Below are positions 18-11,281 of a DNA stretch of 64,000 bases, in pieces (position 1 is the stretch's first letter; every line of letters starts with the position of its first letter). Origin of the DNA: Escherichia phage JN02; the sequence record MT782071.1. One strand, 5' to 3'. A program made the translations under genes and the position numbers. The notes under the pieces are model-generated. The model saw nothing but the letters and a program-made list of their open reading frames with translations. It did no database searches and was not told the DNA's origin.

Positions 18-332
18 TTATTCTTTAGGGAAGTTTTTAGAGTATGCATCATAAAGTTTATTACCAATACGGCGGAAGACTTTAGCTGCAAAACGGTTTT
101 CAGGGTTTTTAATCATGATTTGCATCATGTAAGTTCCTGCATCCGAAAGAGCTTCTTCATAGTACCCGTTAATTTCTTTAAGAGTCCTACGTTTACCACC
201 AGGACCATCAACAGTAATTTTCCATTTACCTGTAGAAGTGCGGCTCGGTGGCTCAACTTGTTCAATCCAAATATAACCACCTTCAACGCGTTGGTTGGCG
301 GATTCTGCAATAAATTCTTTATACGTTTTCAT
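18..332 (-). CDS. Internal (capsid-packaged) protein candidate, 104 aa, N-terminus MKTYKEFIAE
   Basis: ORF in track; N-terminal decapeptide matches the T4 capsid targeting sequence (MKTYQEFIAE) cleaved by gp21 after IAE; sits next to denV/e as the ip genes do in T4. Confidence 0.6.
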   Translation of the reverse strand: MKTYKEFIAESANQRVEGGYIWIEQVEPPSRTSTGKWKITVDGPGGKRRTLKEINGYYEEALSDAGTYMMQIMIKNPENRFAAKVFRRIGNKLYDAYSKNFPKE

Positions 333-1134: not shown

Positions 1135-1416
1135 CTATTTTTCTGAAGCTCCTGAAATATATTTTTCAAGACGTTGTTTCATCAGCGAGCCGTTCTTAGC
1201 GATTTCTTCCGGTTTATCGCACATACGTAACAAGGCTTCAAGCTTAGCGATATCGCTGGTACGTTCAAATTTGCGAGTATCTATCTTACTAGCAAGTTCA
1301 GAAATACGTGCTAATAGACTTTCGGCTTCAACCAAAGCTGCACCTAGCTTAGTTGCAAATGTGTCAGTAGCTTCGTTAAGAATAGATTCTGATAAAAATT
1401 CACTATATGTTTTCAT
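1135..1416 (-). CDS. Internal protein candidate, 93 aa from [10 protein letters not shown]
   Basis: ORF track 1135..1431; internal Met gives a capsid-targeting-like N-terminus; overlaps start of e by 4 nt. Confidence 0.55.
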
Positions 1417-1935: not shown

Positions 1936-2394
1936 TTATAGGATGGTAGTGAGCACCTTATATAATGATTTGCCCATTACATATTCCCATTGAGAAGGTT
2001 TAATTAAAGCGAATGCATCAAATTCAGGAATCTGTCGTCCGTCTGGGAATGTATGATAGGAATTACAAACACTGTTTCTGAATTGCTCGTGCTCTACAGG
2101 GATGGTATATAGGAACAGATGAATATTCTTATTGTCTGAGTAATGATGTTCACCTAGGTCTTTCAGGAAGGCAGGGTCGTATTGTGTAAACCCAGTTTCT
2201 TCTTCGCATTCACGAATAGCGGCTTCGATAGGAGATTCACCAGGCTCGACACGACCTTTAGGAATATCCCACCGATGAGCTAAAGAACCTTTAGGACGAG
2301 AACCAGTTACACGCCCCATGAATAATTCTTTATCTTCGGTAAGGAAAATAATACCGGCTGATAGTTCTTTCACTTTATTTTTCTTACTCATCAT
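1936..2394 (-). CDS. nudE: Nudix hydrolase
   Basis: Nudix box GRVEPGESPIEAAIRECEEETG; about 152 aa; directly downstream of e as in T4 (e.1). Confidence 0.85.
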   Translation of the reverse strand: MMSKKNKVKELSAGIIFLTEDKELFMGRVTGSRPKGSLAHRWDIPKGRVEPGESPIEAAIRECEEETGFTQYDPAFLKDLGEHHYSDNKNIHLFLYTIPVEHEQFRNSVCNSYHTFPDGRQIPEFDAFALIKPSQWEYVMGKSLYKVLTTIL

Positions 2395-2635
2395 CTCGGT
2401 CCCATGATTTGGCCATTAATTCGGACATAAATTCTTCAATGCGCGTTTCTTTAGATGGACTTTCACTATTAGAGACCGCAAGTTTGTAATCTGCAATAGG
2501 ACAGAACATATCAAGGTCCATATTAAGGTCGTCTTTGATTTTTTCTTCTGACACATCTTTATCGTATGTGTACAGATAGCTATCACATGATTCTGATTTA
2601 ATGTAAATTGCTATACTCATCTCAAATTCCTGCAT
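2384..2635 (-). CDS. Hypothetical protein (83 aa; may start at internal Met at 2620)
   Basis: ORF in track; AGGA Shine-Dalgarno 7 nt upstream of the internal ATG. Confidence 0.45.
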   Translation of the reverse strand: MQEFEMSIAIYIKSESCDSYLYTYDKDVSEEKIKDDLNMDLDMFCPIADYKLAVSNSESPSKETRIEEFMSELMAKSWDRDDE

Positions 2636-3108
2636 TCGGTAATAAAACGTTCAACTTCATTATTCTTGGCTTTTATCTTGTCTTTACGTTCCTGTAAACT
2701 ACTTTTAACAAGATTAATAATGATGCCTATAGTACCTCCACCAATAATACCACCAACAACACTTATGATACTAGATGCTAATAAGATAGCAATAATATCA
2801 ACAAAACCGAAAGAACTCACCTTAGTACTGAAAAACCATACCGACGGTACAAATATAATCCATCCTGTTATCCATTGGCACTTATTGAAAAACTTTTCAA
2901 GCTCAGCTTGAGTTGTTCGTATTACTTCATCGATAGGTTGATATCCATTAATGTATCTGTTCACGATAATACCTGCTGGCTGGTCGATTTTAAATTCTTG
3001 ACAAATATGTTTCACTAAGTAGGATGGACATCCTGTCCAATCTACTGAATAGTATGAAATACCTTCATTGCCATCGTCTATATTAGACCAATATGTTTTG
3101 TTAATCAT
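2617..3108 (-). CDS. Hypothetical membrane protein, 163 aa, C-terminus ...ERFITECRNLR
   Basis: ORF in track; hydrophobic helices (FVPSVWFF..., IISVVGGIIGGGTIGIIINL); C-terminal F-I-x-E-C-R motif. Confidence 0.55.
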   Translation of the reverse strand: MINKTYWSNIDDGNEGISYYSVDWTGCPSYLVKHICQEFKIDQPAGIIVNRYINGYQPIDEVIRTTQAELEKFFNKCQWITGWIIFVPSVWFFSTKVSSFGFVDIIAILLASSIISVVGGIIGGGTIGIIINLVKSSLQERKDKIKAKNNEVERFITECRNLR

Positions 3109-3794
3109 TACCAGCCTTCCATAGGGAATTCCAGATAAACTTGAGCATTGACACGAATTTCATTGGTAATCTTTTTAACTCGGTCTGTATTACGAGATAC
3201 ACGTCCGAACCAACGCCATCCATTACTAATTGCACGAGAACCAGTGTGCCATGTTTGCCAATCAAACTGAAGAAGAGTACGGTCCGGAGCTTCCCATTTC
3301 TCTAGTTCACCTTTTTCAATTTTTTCTAGGACTTCTTTGTGCCACTGGCGATAGATAAGTTCGCCATCAGGAATCTGACTGAACTCTGCAGTTCCTGTTG
3401 CAAAATGAGTAGGACACACATCAGCGTTAACAAGACCAAGAATATGTTCAGACAAATAGCGAGGATTGTCATAATCAGGTTGTCCTGCAGTAATAAAGTG
3501 TTGACCAACTGGAATATCAGGGCGTGGTACGTCATCATGGTGATATCCAGGAATAGCAGGATACCAACCAGGCATCAGCATGTGGACTCGTGAATCAAAT
3601 ACAACCTGGTCAGTGTTCCAATCATCTGGCAAGTTCATGATGAAGCTACGAGTAATTGGGCCGCCATTATTAAAAGCAAAATTCAAATCGCAGTTAAAGA
3701 ACATAGGCTCGTTTTTAATCCGATCGTTTTTAATCGCATGAGCAAAACCACCTACTGCACGAGCTTGACTATTAAACACTTTAGAACTATTCAT
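3108..3794 (-). CDS. Hypothetical protein, 228 aa
   Basis: ORF in track, tightly packed in the minus-strand operon. Confidence 0.6.
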   Translation of the reverse strand: MNSSKVFNSQARAVGGFAHAIKNDRIKNEPMFFNCDLNFAFNNGGPITRSFIMNLPDDWNTDQVVFDSRVHMLMPGWYPAIPGYHHDDVPRPDIPVGQHFITAGQPDYDNPRYLSEHILGLVNADVCPTHFATGTAEFSQIPDGELIYRQWHKEVLEKIEKGELEKWEAPDRTLLQFDWQTWHTGSRAISNGWRWFGRVSRNTDRVKKITNEIRVNAQVYLEFPMEGW

Positions 3795-3795
3795 A

Positions 3796-4101
3796 TTATT
3801 TTCCTCGACATTCTTTAATGAAATTTTCTAGATTGGTAGATTCAATAGCTTTTTTACGAGCTTCCGCGTGTTCTTCTTCGGACAATTTACGTTTATAATT
3901 GACCCAGACATTATGGTCGAAACCAGTCGTGGCATATAATAACAATGCTCCAACGAATAGCAAAAACGGCGATAAGAATACAAAACCAGGAACACCATCC
4001 ATATCGTAAGCCTTTTGTAATACTGCAACAGAAAGGGTTGCGTAAAAAGGCGATGCAAGTATTGTTAAAAGACCGATTCGATTGGTTTCTGTTAATTTCA
4101 T
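3796..4101 (-). CDS. Hypothetical small membrane protein, 101 aa, C-terminus ...ENFIKECRGK
   Basis: ORF in track; two hydrophobic segments; shared C-terminal motif. Confidence 0.55.
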   Translation of the reverse strand: MKLTETNRIGLLTILASPFYATLSVAVLQKAYDMDGVPGFVFLSPFLLFVGALLLYATTGFDHNVWVNYKRKLSEEEHAEARKKAIESTNLENFIKECRGK

Positions 4102-4126
4102 AATATTCTCCTCAAGTTGATAGGAC

Positions 4127-4156
4127 TACTATAACATGGCCCTATCAGTTTGTACA
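4127..4156 (-). promoter_or_regulatory. Early promoter cassette (-35 GTACAA, -10 TATAGT) with flanking inverted repeat
   Basis: ttgataggactactataacat element between ORFs. Confidence 0.5.
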
Positions 4157-4157
4157 C

Positions 4158-4358
4158 TTATTTTGACATTTCTTCGATGTCACGACGATACCCATCACGA
4201 ACTTCACGAAGAGCTTCAAGGCCACACATAGGCTCGATACCAGTAATGTGAACTTGATTAATCTGATACTCTACATCTTCTAACTGAGCGAAAACATAAC
4301 GACGTTCTGCTGCACAACCAGGTTTAGCTTTACCGAAACGTTTATTCAAAGTAGTCAT
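4158..4358 (-). CDS. Hypothetical protein, about 66 aa
   Basis: ORF track 4158..4376; internal Met (MTTLNKRF) has GGAG Shine-Dalgarno 8 nt upstream. Confidence 0.45.
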   Translation of the reverse strand: MTTLNKRFGKAKPGCAAERRYVFAQLEDVEYQINQVHITGIEPMCGLEALREVRDGYRRDIEEMSK

Positions 4359-4396
4359 TTTTATATCTCCATTCACTCATTTGTTTTGATAGGTCT

Positions 4397-4426
4397 ATAG
4401 TATCAACAACTACAGACCTTGTAAAC
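4397..4426 (-). promoter_or_regulatory. Early promoter cassette (-35 GTTTAC, -10 TACTAT)
   Basis: Minus-strand GTTTAC-N18-TACTAT; ggtctatag / ctacagacc inverted repeat. Confidence 0.5.
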
Positions 4427-4438
4427 TGTTTTGTGAAA

Positions 4439-5395
4439 TTATTTGAAAGGTTTTACCATATGGAAATTTTGTTTGAAACGTTTTACGTAATCGTTGTGTC
4501 CTAAGCTTTGGTACATACTTACAACTTTGCTGTAGTTTTCCCAGGCGTATTCACGGAACCAACCGGAGGTGATGCTTGTGCAGACTTTTTCTAATGCCAT
4601 CATGAAACTGGCTTCAGGGTTAATTTCAAAGTTATTAGGAATCTGAGAACGTTCTAACGCTAGTACACATGATTCTTCGTATACACCGGCCAATTTGACC
4701 ATTTCTGGTAATGATTCGAACTTCTCGCGTGAGGTCATGACTTCAGAACCATCTTTCATATAAAATGTATACGCTGGACGGTCTGTTAGCGCAATGGCTT
4801 CATGAATAGTATCATGGTCATATGTATAGATGTCATCTTTAAAGAACGCACTTTTAGAAGTGTCAAGAACTGGGTGAGCATAGTTCAAGGTTTCTTTCTG
4901 GCGTTTCAGCATAATTTCAGTAAGTTCATCGTTCAGTGTAACACCTTTACCACGAAGATACTGAATATGGTTCATAGTCTTTAAAAAGAATGGATTATTT
5001 TTCTTGAAACGATGAGACATCTTAATTGCAAGACATATCTCAGGAGTTGCCCAATAAAACCCGTTCAAACGGTCTTTAGTCAAATTTTTCTTGGCGTATT
5101 TTAAAAGGTCATAAGAAGACGTGAAATCTTCAGGAGTGAGTTCACCTACTAATTCACGGACATTAGTGATTGCCGGAACAATATATGCTTCAAAATGAGT
5201 TTCGCGTCCATTATGGAAGCATTTGAAAACTTGGACATCAGGGTTATCTTGATGAACATATACACCCATCATTTGATTTTTGAATGCATTCCAAGAACCT
5301 TGGTCTGCAATAAAGTCCCAGTCACTATTTTTGATAGCGTTAGAATCAATAAGACCGTGATAGTGAAGTGCACGAGAACCAATAACTAACATCAT
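4439..5395 (-). CDS. Hypothetical protein, 318 aa, with possible nucleotidyltransferase-like N-terminal motif
   Basis: ORF in track; N-terminal VIGSRALHYHG...SDWDF resembles the G[SG]...DxD signature of Pol-beta-like nucleotidyltransferases (weak, by eye only). Confidence 0.55.
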   Translation of the reverse strand: MMLVIGSRALHYHGLIDSNAIKNSDWDFIADQGSWNAFKNQMMGVYVHQDNPDVQVFKCFHNGRETHFEAYIVPAITNVRELVGELTPEDFTSSYDLLKYAKKNLTKDRLNGFYWATPEICLAIKMSHRFKKNNPFFLKTMNHIQYLRGKGVTLNDELTEIMLKRQKETLNYAHPVLDTSKSAFFKDDIYTYDHDTIHEAIALTDRPAYTFYMKDGSEVMTSREKFESLPEMVKLAGVYEESCVLALERSQIPNNFEINPEASFMMALEKVCTSITSGWFREYAWENYSKVVSMYQSLGHNDYVKRFKQNFHMVKPFK

Positions 5396-5423
5396 AATAT
5401 TTTCCTCGGATTAATTCATTAAC

Positions 5424-5663
5424 TTAAATTTCACGACATGCGATATTATATTCATCCCAGAGGTCATCATGTGAAGCCTCTACCAATGGAACGATTGTAC
5501 CATTTATGTCTTCATTATAAGGGCAAATTGTGCAGTGTGCATCTTCAAATCGGATGCCTTTGTGTTCAGATTTTTTATAACGCATATCGAATATCTTTGC
5601 AAACTTTTCACGAGTAACGGTTTTAGCAACCACTTCGGTTCCAATACTTTCGTAATAAATCAT
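5424..5663 (-). CDS. Hypothetical protein, 79 aa
   Basis: ORF in track; GGAG Shine-Dalgarno; early promoter immediately upstream. Confidence 0.5.
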   Translation of the reverse strand: MIYYESIGTEVVAKTVTREKFAKIFDMRYKKSEHKGIRFEDAHCTICPYNEDINGTIVPLVEASHDDLWDEYNIACREI

Positions 5664-5691
5664 TGTGGACTCCGTTTAATTTGATAGGACT

Positions 5692-5721
5692 ACTATAACA
5701 TAGTCCTATCTTGTTGTAAAC
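5692..5721 (-). promoter_or_regulatory. Early promoter cassette (-35 GTTTAC, -10 TATAGT) with perfect 9-bp inverted repeat around the -10
   Basis: gataggact...tatagt...agtcctatc. Confidence 0.55.
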
Positions 5722-5725
5722 TGTT

Positions 5726-5923
5726 TTAGCAAGAATAACTAGATGATACCCAGCCTTGAACAGTGATACTATTGTTGGATAATGATATCGCGTTCTGGAG
5801 ATTCAGACCTGCGTTATCTTCAATCCATAATGTAACTTCTTCGCGTTCTTCTGTTGCAATTTGGAACAGGTTTTCCAGGGCAGCTACTGCCGTACGTACA
5901 GCACAATCTAATTCACGAGACAT
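5726..5923 (-). CDS. Hypothetical small protein, 65 aa, paralog family member (C-terminus GWVSSSYSC)
   Basis: ORF in track; shares C-terminal motif with the two upstream ORFs. Confidence 0.5.
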   Translation of the reverse strand: MSRELDCAVRTAVAALENLFQIATEEREEVTLWIEDNAGLNLQNAISLSNNSITVQGWVSSSYSC

Positions 5924-5932
5924 ATGATTTCC

Positions 5933-6205
5933 TTAGCAAGTGTGAGAAGATGCAATCCAACCACCAGTTTCGAGGCTCAGGTTGTAGTCGTATTGGTAAA
6001 CGTCGGCCCATTCAGCATAGCCGTTTTTTGTACAACGTTCAAGATCGGCTTTAAGCTGTCCGGGTGAATGATAAGTTCCACCCATACCATAAGCTGGATA
6101 CAAGTCGAATGTTGTGTTTTGTTTATCAGCGATTTCTTTGGCAGCCTCAATAGCTGCATAGATTTTTGCTACAGCTTCAGCCAGTTCGGTTTGTTCTTTA
6201 GACAT
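5933..6205 (-). CDS. Hypothetical small protein, 90 aa, paralog (C-terminus GGWIASSHTC)
   Basis: ORF in track. Confidence 0.55.
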   Translation of the reverse strand: MSKEQTELAEAVAKIYAAIEAAKEIADKQNTTFDLYPAYGMGGTYHSPGQLKADLERCTKNGYAEWADVYQYDYNLSLETGGWIASSHTC

Positions 6206-6214
6206 AATGATTCC

Positions 6215-6520
6215 TTAGCACAAAGCAGAAGACGAAACCCAAGCACCTTCAGTAATAACGTAACCATTACCTTCACGCTTAACATCGCCACCATTATTTT
6301 CAATTTCATTTTTCATCCACTGGGATACGATTTCACCCTTAGGATAATAAGTACGACCGCTACCATAATCACCTACAGAAAATGATACGGCATATTGGTC
6401 TGCGATCTTTGTTGCTTCTTCTTCGATACGTTCAGCTTGATTCAGAAGTTTATAAATTGCATCTGAAGCGGATTTGGCATCGTTAAACTCTGGTACTTTA
6501 ATTTCAATAATCTTACTCAT
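6215..6520 (-). CDS. Hypothetical small protein, 101 aa, paralog (C-terminus GAWVSSSALC)
   Basis: ORF in track; start overlaps upstream stop (ATGA). Confidence 0.55.
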   Translation of the reverse strand: MSKIIEIKVPEFNDAKSASDAIYKLLNQAERIEEEATKIADQYAVSFSVGDYGSGRTYYPKGEIVSQWMKNEIENNGGDVKREGNGYVITEGAWVSSSALC

Positions 6521-6876
6521 TTTCTACATTCCTTAATAAAGTTTTCGATTGTTTCATTTTCACGTTTAGCTAGAAGTTCATTATAACTAACCATTTGAGA
6601 AGCGTAAACCTTTTTATTTTTCTTGTTATGGTTTATAAAATCGTAGTAAAAATAGACTACAGTACAAAATGATGCGATGGATGCAAAGGCTTGGGTATAC
6701 CGTAAGTCCTGCCATTGGTCTGTGAATCCATCGGTGTTCCCTATAAATCCTAACACAACGCCGTCAATAAGAAATCCAACTAATCCAAAGGCAAATCCCA
6801 TGCCAATACTCATAATAAAAATTAGAATGTTCTCACCAAGAGAAGGCCGTACGGTTAAGAGTTGAGGCTTTTGCAT
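6517..6876 (-). CDS. Hypothetical membrane protein, 119 aa, C-terminus ...ENFIKECRK
   Basis: ORF in track; hydrophobic segments; shared C-terminal motif. Confidence 0.55.
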   Translation of the reverse strand: MQKPQLLTVRPSLGENILIFIMSIGMGFAFGLVGFLIDGVVLGFIGNTDGFTDQWQDLRYTQAFASIASFCTVVYFYYDFINHNKKNKKVYASQMVSYNELLAKRENETIENFIKECRK

Positions 6877-7250
6877 CTTATTTCCTTAACGAATTCCATA
6901 GCTTCTTCGTATTCATACTTTTTAACAGCTTCATTATACTGAGCTTGGGCTTTTGCGCACTGAACTTTCCATTCTCTTAATCGGGCTCTGTGATGACGTC
7001 CTTGGTACCAATATCCTACCCAATTAATAGGCATTAATAAAAACGGTACAATAAGTGGTGCGACGAACATTAATGAAAATGTTGCGTCAGACGATATAAC
7101 TTCACTAGAATCTAAAACAGCTCCTATAATCATAAAGATTAAAAATGCTAAAGCTAAAATAGGGCCAAATAGTACTTCGTTTGGGATTAATTTACGCTTG
7201 TATTCATATGCCCAGGGCTTACTTGGCATGTACAGGGTTGGCTTTGACAT
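6855..7250 (-). CDS. Hypothetical membrane protein, about 131 aa (start uncertain), C-terminus ...EFVKEIRCKSLNS
   Basis: ORF track 6855..7280; start probably an internal Met to avoid long overlap with the upstream gene. Confidence 0.45.
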   Translation of the reverse strand: MSKPTLYMPSKPWAYEYKRKLIPNEVLFGPILALAFLIFMIIGAVLDSSEVISSDATFSLMFVAPLIVPFLLMPINWVGYWYQGRHHRARLREWKVQCAKAQAQYNEAVKKYEYEEAMEFVKEIRCKSLNS

Positions 7251-7815
7251 ATTCTCTACATTCCATAATAAATTGCTCAAGGATTAAATTGTTAGTGAAA
7301 TTAGGACTAACAACCATAGTTTCATAAAGCGCATCAATAGCACTTAAAGCATCAACTCTTTTAAGCAAAGGCTTGCCTTCATACATAGTTTCAGAATCGA
7401 TGATTAACGTAAAGTAATATTTTTTATTATCGACTAGAACTTCTGTATCGATATAAAACATATTAGACCTCAGAAGCTTATCTCTAAAACCATAATAATC
7501 TTCAGAGCGTTCGCTGATATATTCCAATTCAGTGTTTAAACAACAAACAGACCACGTAGGAGCAACGAAATCAGTGAATCTAATATCATGGTCTGCAACT
7601 AGTTTAGCAATAGCTCCGATATCATGAATCATAATACCTGGGGCTAATAAAGATTTTCGGTTATTTGCATATTCAGTTGTCTCATAAGAAGACGACCAGT
7701 ACCATTTACGTCCAGTTGCAACATATCGTAATGAATCAACTAAAGACGTAGGTGGATTTACCTTATTTCGGAACTCTTCGAACATTGAGTCAATATCATT
7801 ATTTTGGTTTCGCAT
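7219..7815 (-). CDS. Hypothetical protein, about 198 aa, containing ...EQFIMECREY... near the C-terminus
   Basis: ORF track 7219..7836; Met at 7815 has GGAG Shine-Dalgarno 6 nt upstream. Confidence 0.5.
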   Translation of the reverse strand: MRNQNNDIDSMFEEFRNKVNPPTSLVDSLRYVATGRKWYWSSSYETTEYANNRKSLLAPGIMIHDIGAIAKLVADHDIRFTDFVAPTWSVCCLNTELEYISERSEDYYGFRDKLLRSNMFYIDTEVLVDNKKYYFTLIIDSETMYEGKPLLKRVDALSAIDALYETMVVSPNFTNNLILEQFIMECREYVKANPVHAK

Positions 7816-7832
7816 GTTAACTCCTTTATTAT

Positions 7833-7856
7833 CCAAAAGGAGGACCGGAGTCCTCC
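7833..7856 (-). terminator. Rho-independent terminator (stem ggaggac / gtcctcc, tetraloop, T-tract on minus strand)
   Basis: Hairpin followed by TTTTGG on minus strand, downstream of ORF 7865..8473. Confidence 0.5.
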
Positions 7857-7864
7857 GTATTATT

Positions 7865-8473
7865 TTATTTCAAAGAGTTAATATATTCTTGTACATCAGC
7901 AGAAGTGGTTTCGACACCAGCTGGAGTGCCATTGAACGTTTCAACACGAGTCAGAGTGTCTTCGATATCAACCTTAGTCAGTGCAGCGATTTCAATTACA
8001 TCATCAGCCGTAGAGATACCAAGGGCATTGGCTGCTCGAGTTTCACGAATGTATTCGAGTTTGATTGCCAGGTTCTGACGAGCATCATCAAGTTCAACCA
8101 CCTTACGAGCAATTTCAATTCGCATAGCAGCATACCCATCAGCTTTTGTATTAAGTTGTTCGGCAGTTCGACGATACAGAAGACCAAGCTTAGCATGCAT
8201 GGTAACATCTTGTCCTTCAGCCATGAGCTTACGAATTTCACGTTCCTTAGAAGCGGCTTGTTTGTTCTTTTCATTAACAAGTTCGCGAATACGTTTTTCT
8301 TCATTAATAGATTTAACAGAAGCCGTTTTTAGTTCTTTGATCTGGGTAATCAACTTATCTGCAGCTGCGTTATACTGTTCTTCGACAGTCAGATTTTTAG
8401 CCATAGCAGTACCCAGTTTAGTGCGGATGAATTCAACAAGTTTCTTCAGTGTGTTCATATTATTACCTTTCAA
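7865..8473 (-). CDS. Hypothetical coiled-coil protein, about 200 aa
   Basis: ORF in track; charged, heptad-like composition. Confidence 0.55.
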
Positions 8474-8499
8474 TTGGTGGTTTATTATCCAATGAGAGC

Positions 8500-8528
8500 A
8501 TTATACTCTACTCTCAAGAGTTTGTACA
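8500..8528 (-). promoter_or_regulatory. Early promoter (-35 TGTACA, -10 TATAAT)
   Basis: Minus-strand TGTACA-N17-TATAAT upstream of ORF 7865..8473. Confidence 0.45.
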
Positions 8529-11124: not shown

Positions 11125-11201
<77 letters not shown>

Positions 11202-11207
11202 AATATA

Positions 11208-11281
11208 TGACCCAGACCAGATTCGAACTGGTAACCTTTCCCTTATGAGGGGACTGCTGCTAACCATTGAGCTACAGGGCC
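11208..11281 (-). tRNA. tRNA with CAT anticodon (Met, or lysidine-modified Ile2-type)
   Basis: T-arm accag-TTCGAAT-ctggt, anticodon loop CTCATAA, acceptor with one wobble and one mismatch, D-arm imperfect; 6 nt from tRNA-Arg (dimeric precursor arrangement). Confidence 0.6.

Follow-up and report, generated by a model that had tools for sequence, protein, structure and literature searches.

The DNA analysed here, referred to throughout as the window, is a 64,000-nucleotide stretch of Escherichia phage JN02 (sequence record MT782071.1). The phage is of the Mosigvirus type (RB69-like, T4-type), and many Mosigvirus genomes match positions 2300-8500 of the window at 96-99% identity. In the first 16 kb, the minus strand carries denV, the lysozyme gene e, nudE and then a block of small genes, among which five open reading frames (ORFs), here called A to E, end in variants of one short peptide tail, F-I-x-x-C-R (Table 1). 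A first-pass annotation, made from the sequence alone, had singled out these five by their common C-terminal motif, and all five are indeed present on the minus strand. What that annotation did not contain is the identity of the genes and of their neighbour. Comparison with T4 identifies A, C, D and E as the counterparts of e.2, e.3, e.4 and e.5, and places B within a 3.4-kb insertion that separates e.2 from e.3. The tail genes are co-oriented and tightly packed, many of them overlapping one another, and the array lies immediately 3' of e.6, whose product, judged from profiles and a structural model to be a relative of PspA and Vipp1, is a candidate partner for the tail. In T4, which has been studied more closely than any other lytic phage, the genes e.2-e.6 are listed as being of unknown function in a genome-wide screen published in 2025 (PMC11879866, supplement).

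Table 1. Tail-bearing genes and associated features of the window, together with reference positions at other loci
Feature	Position	Strand	Description
A, e.2 orthologue, full length	2617-3108	(-)	tail ERFITECRNLR; motif codons 2629-2646
B, 101-aa two-helix membrane protein, Mosigvirus-specific	3796-4101	(-)	tail ENFIKECRGK; motif codons 3805-3822
C, e.3 orthologue, 119-aa membrane protein	6517-6876	(-)	tail ENFIKECRK; motif codons 6523-6540
D, e.4 orthologue, 131-aa two-helix membrane protein	6855-7250	(-)	tail MEFVKEIRCKSLNS; motif codons 6876-6893; Ile for Cys
E, e.5 orthologue, soluble 198-aa protein	7219-7815	(-)	tail EQFIMECREYVKANPVHAK; motif codons 7255-7272; first gene after e.6
Motif Arg codons in the window	2629-2631, 3805-3807, 6523-6525, 6876-6878, 7255-7257	(-)	
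e.6 orthologue	7865-8458	(-)	197-aa helical-hairpin protein; upstream neighbour of e.5
Hairpin, 7 bp, G+C-rich	7839-7856	(-)	GGAGGACTCCGGTCCTCC then TTTTGG (T run); from terminator-like scan
T4 e.2 region	L002 3473-3961 = NC_000866 67472-67960; L019 stop 42229		T4 e.2 split versus intact relatives
Ackermannviridae I-[IV]-x-x-A-R-[GS]-R loci	L059 5655-6728; L060 6999-7217; L063 4651-5381		Agtrevirus, Erwinia phage Bue1, Klebsiella phage May

The pattern F[IVL].E[CI]R has five matches in the six-frame translation of the window, all of which fall in ORFs A to E, 1-11 residues before the stop. When the residues of the 255 stop-to-stop segments of at least 60 aa were shuffled 2000 times, a mean of 0.014 segments (at most one) carried the motif in their last 22 residues, as compared to the five observed. 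The T4 genome gives a similar picture: taken as a whole and in any frame, it contains [FW][IV]..C[RK] within the last 30 aa of a stop-to-stop segment only in e.5, e.3 and a remnant of e.2. The latter gene is frameshifted in T4, such that the annotated 102-aa protein ends after its first membrane helix and the remainder, including NNFITECRKLK, is found in another frame, whereas the intact e.2 of close T4 relatives encodes 162 aa and ends with this very sequence.

Apart from the tail, the five proteins have little in common. They belong to five separate PHROGs (2203, 9798, 2330, 2604 and 2607), of which phrog_2203 alone carries a label, the generic 'membrane protein', and their bodies, once the tail is removed, show no BLAST-level similarity to one another, except that B is weakly linked to e.2 in the C-terminal half of the latter. 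Protein A matches phrog_2203 (E 1.3e-54) and is homologous to e.2 of T4-like phages, SP18, JS98 and IME523; according to a hydropathy scan, on which all topologies given here are based, it is composed of a soluble N-terminal domain of ~80 aa, a transmembrane hairpin (~92-135), a charged helix and the tail, and the gene that follows begins at 2620, overlapping the stop of A as ATGA. Protein B, with transmembrane segments at 9-29 and 35-61, matches phrog_9798 (E 9e-66) and, weakly (E 0.003), phrog_2203 in its C-terminal half, so that it is perhaps a truncated paralogue of e.2; the T4, SP18 and JS98 arrays lack B. Protein C (phrog_2330) has homologues in 706 phage records by tblastn and shares 35% identity with T4 e.3, which ends in EFVIDCRKIK. 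Protein D (phrog_2604) is 55% identical to T4 e.4, ending in KFVKESRCKSQS, and its Arg-Cys codons contain the start of C at 6876. Protein E (phrog_2607) is 46% identical to T4 e.5, ending in KFVKECREYVKAITIPSK, and a helix at 177-192 is predicted in its AF2 model, which is of low confidence (pLDDT 55.6; 5 homologues found, 4-sequence alignment). For the last two genes, the TTG starts of the first-pass annotation, 7280 for D and 7836 for E, correspond to maximal ORFs and had to be revised: homologues and the T4 annotation favour ATG 7250 for D, and ATG 7815 or GTG 7821 for E.

Transmembrane hairpins are found in four of the five proteins (A-D), with E having none. This agrees only in part with the earlier description of four proteins with hydrophobic N-terminal helices, which applies to the two-helix membrane proteins B, C and D, but not to A, where the hairpin is located behind the soluble domain. 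In the membrane carriers, the tail comes after the last membrane helix and a K/R-rich stretch, so that by the positive-inside rule it is probably exposed on the cytoplasmic side. The notion of a shared cytoplasmic tail on diverse, mostly membrane-anchored bodies, put forward on first inspection, is therefore in line with both the topology and the five distinct PHROGs. Pfam, NCBIfam and PADLOC scans of the five proteins returned nothing meaningful; specifically, they gave no Pfam or NCBIfam match to the partner families PspB, PspC and LiaI at E<=0.1. The labels 'sulfurtransferase' and 'host specificity protein' appear in some GenBank records, but we found no supporting family match for them.

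Searching other phage genomes for the tail, a check proposed in the first-pass annotation, recovered it across the Straboviridae, including the T4 e.2-e.5 counterparts, and also in SP18, JS98, Kanagawavirus, a Klebsiella phage, Karamvirus PG7, Aeromonas Biquartavirus, the RB43-like GAP161 and Morganella phage MP1. Since the motif holds ~20-25 bits, too little for billion-sequence libraries, regular expressions were applied to fetched loci; a tail profile 45 residues long, run against 5.8 billion proteins, yielded only fragments of already known tail families. The consensus was drawn from 117 distinct tails of many genera. With the Phe as position 0, where W is found rarely, it has L/I/F/V at -3, E/N/D at -2, I/V at +1, a preference for K at +2 and for E at +3 (47/117), C at +4 (sometimes I/V/S) and R at +5 (sometimes K), followed by another 0-25 residues. 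The hydrophobic positions -3, 0, +1 and +4 share one face of an α-helix. Protein D has its place in this consensus, as the first-pass annotation held, in that its F-V-K-E-I-R aligns with the motif; the Cys position, however, is occupied by Ile, and an extra Cys follows the Arg.

In its general form, h-x-x-[FW]-[IV]-x-x-C-[RK], the tail recurs across the Straboviridae in ~25-30 unrelated bodies. After removal of the tails, the carriers fall into 39 BLAST clusters, ~25-30 of them credible, with membrane proteins as well as soluble ones represented. In size, the soluble e.5-like cluster (43 unique sequences of 92-299 aa) and those of e.2, e.3 and e.4 lead, and the remainder consists of numerous small membrane proteins and several small soluble ones. 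An alignment of 41 sequences of the gene following e.6 illustrates how well the tail is kept, as few columns in this strongly diverged family are conserved to the degree of its F (98%), C (98%) and R (90%). One 60-aa protein from Escherichia phage OLB35 (P0010) has pieces of e.3 (…SYNELLAKRENETIE) fused straight to the tail of e.4 (AVKKYEYEEAMEFVKEIRCKSLN), and represents either an e.3/e.4 deletion or an artefact of assembly or annotation.

It is conceivable that the tail is simply the last recognisable trace of shared ancestry in fast-diverging tandem paralogues, retained for its structural use within each protein, which an amphipathic helix close to the membrane might for instance stabilise or orient, and without any common partner. 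Proteins e.3 and e.4 do have the same architecture and align weakly over their full length (E 0.01-0.2, in a tiny database), the resemblance of B to the C-terminal half of e.2 points in the same direction, and local tandem duplication is evident from three G-W-V-S-S-S-x-x-C paralogues located between B and C. However, the tail is also found on unrelated soluble bodies, which besides the e.5 family include one family of 92-99 aa in IME523 and another of 117-162 aa in PG7 as well as, in Klebsiella phages, a protein of 102 aa encoded after nudE, and a generic amphipathic helix would not be expected to hold a near-invariant F, C and R amid such drift. We thus consider common descent without a partner to be distinctly unlikely. 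A membrane-targeting helix of the MinD or FtsA type was rejected as well, the carriers being membrane-anchored already and the invariant C-R being left unexplained by it.

Within the 117 tails, the motif is written in many ways. Arginine is encoded by all six of its codons (AGA 34, CGT 30, AGG 17, CGA 13, CGC 9, CGG 2), cysteine by TGT (54) and TGC (46), and phenylalanine by TTT (76) and TTC (36). In the window, B uses TTC ATT AAA GAA TGT CGA and C uses TTT ATT AAG GAA TGT AGA, confirming the earlier remark that synonymous codons differ between copies. As F, I/V, C and R are preserved through this variety of codons, and also far from the next start, selection must act at the protein level, which is what the first-pass annotation had argued.

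The tight packing of the array nevertheless offers a different reading, according to which the motif is a by-product of the Shine-Dalgarno and start region of the next, translationally coupled gene, read as F-I-K-E-C-R. In the window, the next gene begins -1 to +10 nt past the Arg codon, and the motif region thus doubles as its Shine-Dalgarno sequence, with AAGGAA (Lys-Glu) or AGG, AGA and GGA acting in this role. Moreover, AGA and AGG account for 61% of the Arg codons in tails where no more than four codons remain, for 34% in tails with more and for 17% in the genome background; for AGG alone, the counts are 18 with at most four codons left versus 1. Against this stands that the Shine-Dalgarno sequence is placed differently from copy to copy, on the Lys-Glu codons in e.3 and e.4, but on Arg-Gly or Arg-Asn in B and e.2, in agreement with the variable position reported initially. 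In addition, the motif is intact where the next start is 22-28 nt away (SP18, JS98, IME523) or even ~60-70 nt away (Aeromonas Asfd_1, Cronobacter GAP161), so that constraint by an overlapping ribosome-binding site, the objection that the first-pass annotation had raised to its own proposal, does not account for these tails. The enrichment of AGA and AGG near the stop rather indicates that the Shine-Dalgarno sequence of the next gene merely picks the synonymous codon. A ribosome-binding site as the sole cause is essentially excluded, and we give almost no credence to the motif being an RNA by-product. A scan of the window found no promoter or hairpin coinciding with the motif. RNA sites for RegA or RegB were rejected, as there is no nucleotide conservation, and a PeSL regulatory cassette was rejected as well, given that the motif is coding and its synonymous sites are variable.

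PeSL cassettes, which are documented for the variable regions of these phages (PMC2839356, PMC4122927), resemble the tails in being short repeats at the gene boundaries of a variable region that are tied to gene gain and loss, and the tail repeat might accordingly be viewed as a DNA-level recombination linker for the gain, loss and shuffling of cassettes in a hyperplastic region. The content of the array varies between genera, and in one case the event itself can be traced: in JS98, e.4 is missing, and e.5 is joined to e.3 by a crossover between the e.5-to-e.4 and e.4-to-e.3 junctions of SP18 (L011 4245-4330 versus L009 6603-7040). The exchange lies in 16 nt of microhomology, AAxGxGGTTCxxAATG, around the ribosome-binding site and start codon; it is thus located past the tails and spares the motif itself. 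Furthermore, the nucleotides of the motif vary without restraint at synonymous sites, the reverse of what would be required of a recombination substrate, and PeSLs are intergenic promoter and hairpin elements conserved at the nucleotide level, whereas the tail is coding and conserved at the level of amino acids only. A linker function hence appears highly improbable. The tail motif is, in sum, specific, common to many unrelated bodies and under protein-level selection.

The position of the tail genes was assessed in a set of 38 IMG/VR loci anchored on e.6 (50-99% identity among them), with flanks of 7 kb on each side. All 117 tail-bearing ORFs found around e.6 lie downstream of it and on its own strand, with no case upstream or on the other strand, and the gene directly after e.6 is tail-bearing in nearly all 38 loci. 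In large Aeromonas phages, this gene has the variant tails FINYCI and FVEYCI. Conservation of e.6 itself greatly exceeds that of every tail carrier: between T4 and the window, e.6 is 87-88% identical, as compared to 35-55% for e.3, e.4 and e.5.

By profile and model evidence, e.6 is a diverged PspA/Vipp1/IM30 protein of the ESCRT-III superfamily. Proteins of the PspA/Vipp1 kind serve in membrane repair, binding to membranes and forming polymers. A profile of 30 e.6 homologues, searched against 1.84 billion proteins, delineates a compact family of 45 cluster representatives, nearly all of ~200 aa, with distant members in the Ackermannviridae, namely in Vi01, Agtrevirus, Taipeivirus and Erwinia phage Bue1. 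Two of these distant members exceed the gathering score of 33.9 of the Pfam family PF04012 (PspA_IM30), P0085 with 39.0 bits and P0079 with 35.1 bits, over profile positions 2-143 of 220. Both are firm members of the e.6 family, matching phrog_1203 with E 3.5e-65 and 1e-52, and the e.6 profile with E 7.7e-17 and 3.4e-20, respectively. When a family profile of 41 sequences, headed by e.6 of the window (alignment A7), was compared with the PDB, Vipp1 and PspA made up the seven best matches and eight of the best nine (among them 8qfv, E 4.2e-5; 9eom, 8.1e-5; 8qhv, 1.3e-4; 7o3w, 2.3e-4; 8qbw, 8.4e-4; and 6zvr, 1.3e-3), the sole exception being the prefoldin subunit 6vy1 (E 1.2e-3). The alignment is colinear from the first residue, pairing residues 1-146 of the query with 1-147 of the chain. 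In the AF2 model of e.6 (pLDDT 76.5), a helix at the N-terminus is followed by a long hairpin and, at the C-terminus, by two short helices, an arrangement that counts as an ESCRT-III fold, and Foldseek searches with this model rank Vipp1 structures first to ninth, followed by archaeal CdvB2 and PspA. The assignment of e.6 to PspA/Vipp1 is the outcome of these three lines taken together, that is, the members passing PF04012, the ranking of PDB matches, and the model with its structural neighbours. One GenBank record labels the e.6 homologue of a Vi01-type phage as 'shock protein A'. At its C-terminus, e.6 has a conserved helix of the form h-x-x-Y-[IL]-x-S-L-K, which is of the same pattern class as the tail and whose Tyr is the only invariant column among distant homologues.

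For the distant members, two single-protein scans of IMG/VR remained empty and a third returned one locus, and the Ackermannviridae loci were taken from the phage GenBank collection. In this family, too, the e.6 homologue is followed by membrane proteins with a common tail, I-[IV]-x-x-A-R-[GS], whose spacing and position are as in F-I-x-x-C-R. Examples are YAIVENARGRRR, DHIVNKARGRRK, DIIVSQARSRRQ, SIIKQARSRTRQ and KIVEQARKEQ; the first, longer gene after the e.6 homologue ends in ETIVARARGQ or ESIIRRARGK. A C-terminal tail motif is therefore strictly linked to a phage PspA/Vipp1-like gene in two phage families.

The main alternative to docking on e.6 is a partner from the host. The tail would then bind a conserved host protein, such as host PspA or PspF, FtsH or some other hub at the inner membrane or in the cytoplasm, and e.6 would be a mere neighbour in an early transcription unit. 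Consistent with this, the motif has been retained by phages whose hosts, Escherichia, Klebsiella, Enterobacter, Morganella, Aeromonas and Cronobacter, share conserved hubs, the PHROG category of phrog_2203 is 'moron, auxiliary metabolic gene and host takeover', and T4-type genomes carry many host-takeover genes in the region of the tail block. A host partner leaves unexplained, however, why tail genes are strictly confined to the downstream side of e.6, and why the tail switches to I-V-x-x-A-R alongside a divergent e.6 in Ackermannviridae that infect the same hosts (Salmonella, Klebsiella). For these reasons we judge it unlikely, although it carries more weight than the paralogy remnant and the recombination linker discussed above, and also more than a role of the tail as a processing or turnover signal. 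Such a signal, be it a degron for host proteases or a modification site at the Cys or Arg, would set the time at which early proteins are removed or activated; it would suit the near-invariant Cys and Arg close to the C-terminus, and T4 possesses Arg-specific ADP-ribosyltransferases as well as a Lon inhibitor. Yet with 0-25 residues between motif and C-terminus the tail is unlike known C-terminal degrons, no likeness to known sites was found, and the linkage to e.6 would again go unexplained, making a turnover signal very unlikely.

Based on the results above, we tentatively favour, at a little less than an even chance, a model in which the tail is a cytoplasmic docking helix that joins modular membrane and soluble adaptors to the phage PspA-like protein. 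The motif would be the core of an amphipathic helix, short, cytoplasmic and located at the C-terminus or close to it, of the form hydrophobic-x-x-F-I-x-x-C-R, with its hydrophobic residues at i, i+3, i+4 and i+7, and this helix would be carried by unrelated bodies, two-helix membrane anchors in the case of e.2, e.3, e.4 and B, and soluble domains in the case of e.5. Each adaptor would dock through its tail at one common site on the e.6 protein, or on host PspA, thereby tethering, nucleating or regulating a membrane-protecting or membrane-remodelling e.6 polymer at the inner membrane during infection. As a further speculation, the tails might mimic the C-terminal helix of e.6 itself. We infer the placement of the tail in the cytoplasm, its helical form and, above all, its physical interaction with e.6. 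The model draws on the specificity of the motif in the window and in T4, on its synteny with e.6, on protein-level selection and on the unrelated nature of the bodies; it is further supported by the PspA/Vipp1 likeness of e.6, by the covariation of the tail across two families, and by the presence of a C-terminal helix of the same pattern class in e.6. There is also a precedent, as the cytoplasmic C-terminal domain of the small inner-membrane protein PspC binds PspA (PMC5596341, PMC11237479).

Several observations weigh against this docking model. Synteny alone does not prove an interaction, and the partner could equally be a conserved host protein. The homology of e.6 to PspA rests on transitive and profile evidence with E-values of ~1e-4 to 1e-5, and e.6 of the window itself has no PF04012 match at E<=0.1, and in fact no Pfam hit at all. 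Within the tails, the Cys is missing in the e.4 type (Ile, Ser or Val instead) and the Arg in large Aeromonas phages, indicating that no single residue is absolutely required, and in PG7 the gene adjoining e.6 has no tail. Finally, knock-down of T4 e.2-e.6 caused no fitness defect under laboratory conditions (PMC11879866, supplement), implying that any function is conditional.

The layout assumed in the docking model has counterparts in bacteria, where PspB, PspC, LiaI and PspM are known as small membrane partners of PspA homologues (PMC11237479). In the PspB/PspC-PspA, LiaI-LiaH and PspM-PspA modules, just as in the phage block, a PspA/IM30-family gene is accompanied by genes whose products are small integral proteins of the inner membrane: in the phage, e.6 precedes small two-helix membrane proteins (A-D) with a conserved, presumably cytoplasmic C-terminal helix. 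In contrast to the Psp modules, the phage tail proteins number 3-6 per genome, are in part soluble and have one short motif in place of a family domain; the phage block is also without a PspF-type regulator and is encoded by lytic phages, and partner binding is in its case something that we infer. A second point of comparison are C-terminal peptides that dock on a hub, such as the clamp-binding tails of T4 gp43, gp33 and gp55, or the Vps4-binding MIM helices of ESCRT-III proteins. Like the phage tail, these are short C-terminal amphipathic elements on otherwise unrelated proteins, with one hub bound by all; the phage tail differs in its pattern, F-I-x-x-C-R, and in its carriers, which are mostly membrane proteins, and its hub is putative. 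A clamp-binding motif and mimicry of the FtsZ tail were rejected, as these patterns differ on inspection.

A superficial likeness to the tail (x-F-I-x-E) exists in three small ORFs at the beginning of the window (18-332, 396-656 and 1135-1416, minus strand), two of which start with MKTYKEFIAE and MKMYQEFIAE, and the third with a like sequence. This is the T4-type capsid-targeting sequence of internal head proteins. In T4, where it reads MKTYQEFIAE, it is, like the tail, a short E-F-I-x-E peptide found on several unrelated proteins in the same region of the genome. However, it is N-terminal, belongs to late virion proteins and ends at the (L/I)-x-E protease site, whereas the tail is C-terminal and its C-R has no counterpart there. 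A capsid-targeting sequence or gp21 protease site was rejected as an explanation of the tail on these grounds, that is, the wrong end of the protein, conservation of C and R instead, and a Glu at +3 that is not conserved.

Between the tail genes, the array contains further elements. The hairpin between the stop of e.6 and the start of e.5 divides e.6 from the overlapping genes e.5-e.4-e.3, and resembles a terminator or an element that stabilises RNA. On the minus strand, hexamers similar to promoters, with an extended -10 TG, are found at 5683-5720 and 4128-4156, bordering the genes inserted between e.2 and e.3; one of these sites overlaps a 10-bp hairpin and resembles the PeSL cassettes of T4-type variable regions. 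Two larger conserved proteins inside the array (3108-3794 and 4439-5395, minus strand) have no tail. They belong to the array in several genera (Mosigvirus, SP18, JS98 and IME523, the second also in PG7); one of them matches phrog_1843 and the other contains DUF7277 and DUF7275. The three tandem paralogues between B and C are small soluble proteins (5726-5923, 5933-6205 and 6215-6520, minus strand; phrog_899 and phrog_4882), which terminate in G-W-[VI]-[SA]-S-S-x-x-C at the very C-terminus, Cys being the final residue. With five copies in SP18 (L009 7351-8619) and several in IME523 and PG7, they represent a second family defined by its C-terminus within the array of tail proteins. For the five tail proteins, a PADLOC scan for anti-phage defence families gave no matches, and in the window Rfam found two tRNAs at 11128-11281 only.

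We found no paper describing a PspA/Vipp1 likeness in T4-type phages, and searches for phage-encoded PspA came back empty. Viruses and phage genomes go unmentioned in a large comparative study of Psp systems (PMC11237479), as do PspA and ESCRT in a paper on the comparative genomics of jumbo phages, and the main texts of the CRISPRi-ART and HIDEN-SEQ papers do not mention e.2-e.6, names that are unsearchable as words. The PspA/ESCRT-III-like module of the T4 group was previously unannotated, while modules of this kind, a PspA homologue with small membrane partners, are already known.

Going one step further, one could envisage a self-contained phage PspA/ESCRT-III-like membrane system in T4-type (Straboviridae) and Vi01-type (Ackermannviridae) phages, made up of a polymer-forming e.6 protein and fast-evolving modular adaptors that dock by one short C-terminal helix, maybe mimicking the Y-I-x-S-L-K helix of e.6 at an inter-subunit site, and controlling the integrity of the inner membrane or the proton-motive force. 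This wider picture is possible, but we regard it as doubtful. If true, it would give these phages control over the inner membrane, for example during lysis inhibition, during superinfection or under abortive-infection attacks on the membrane.

What the present analysis provides is the conversion of a block of five or six orphan T4 genes into one testable module, consisting of a phage PspA/Vipp1 homologue and its putative docking-helix adaptors. Should the interaction between tail and e.6 prove true, lytic phages would bring along their own ESCRT-III-type machinery, targeted by interchangeable membrane anchors, which would bear on the question of how phages keep the host membrane energised until lysis. 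In that case, an F-I-x-x-C-R motif within ~25 residues of the C-terminus, encoded downstream of e.6, would also serve as a signature for annotating dozens of orphan phage families.

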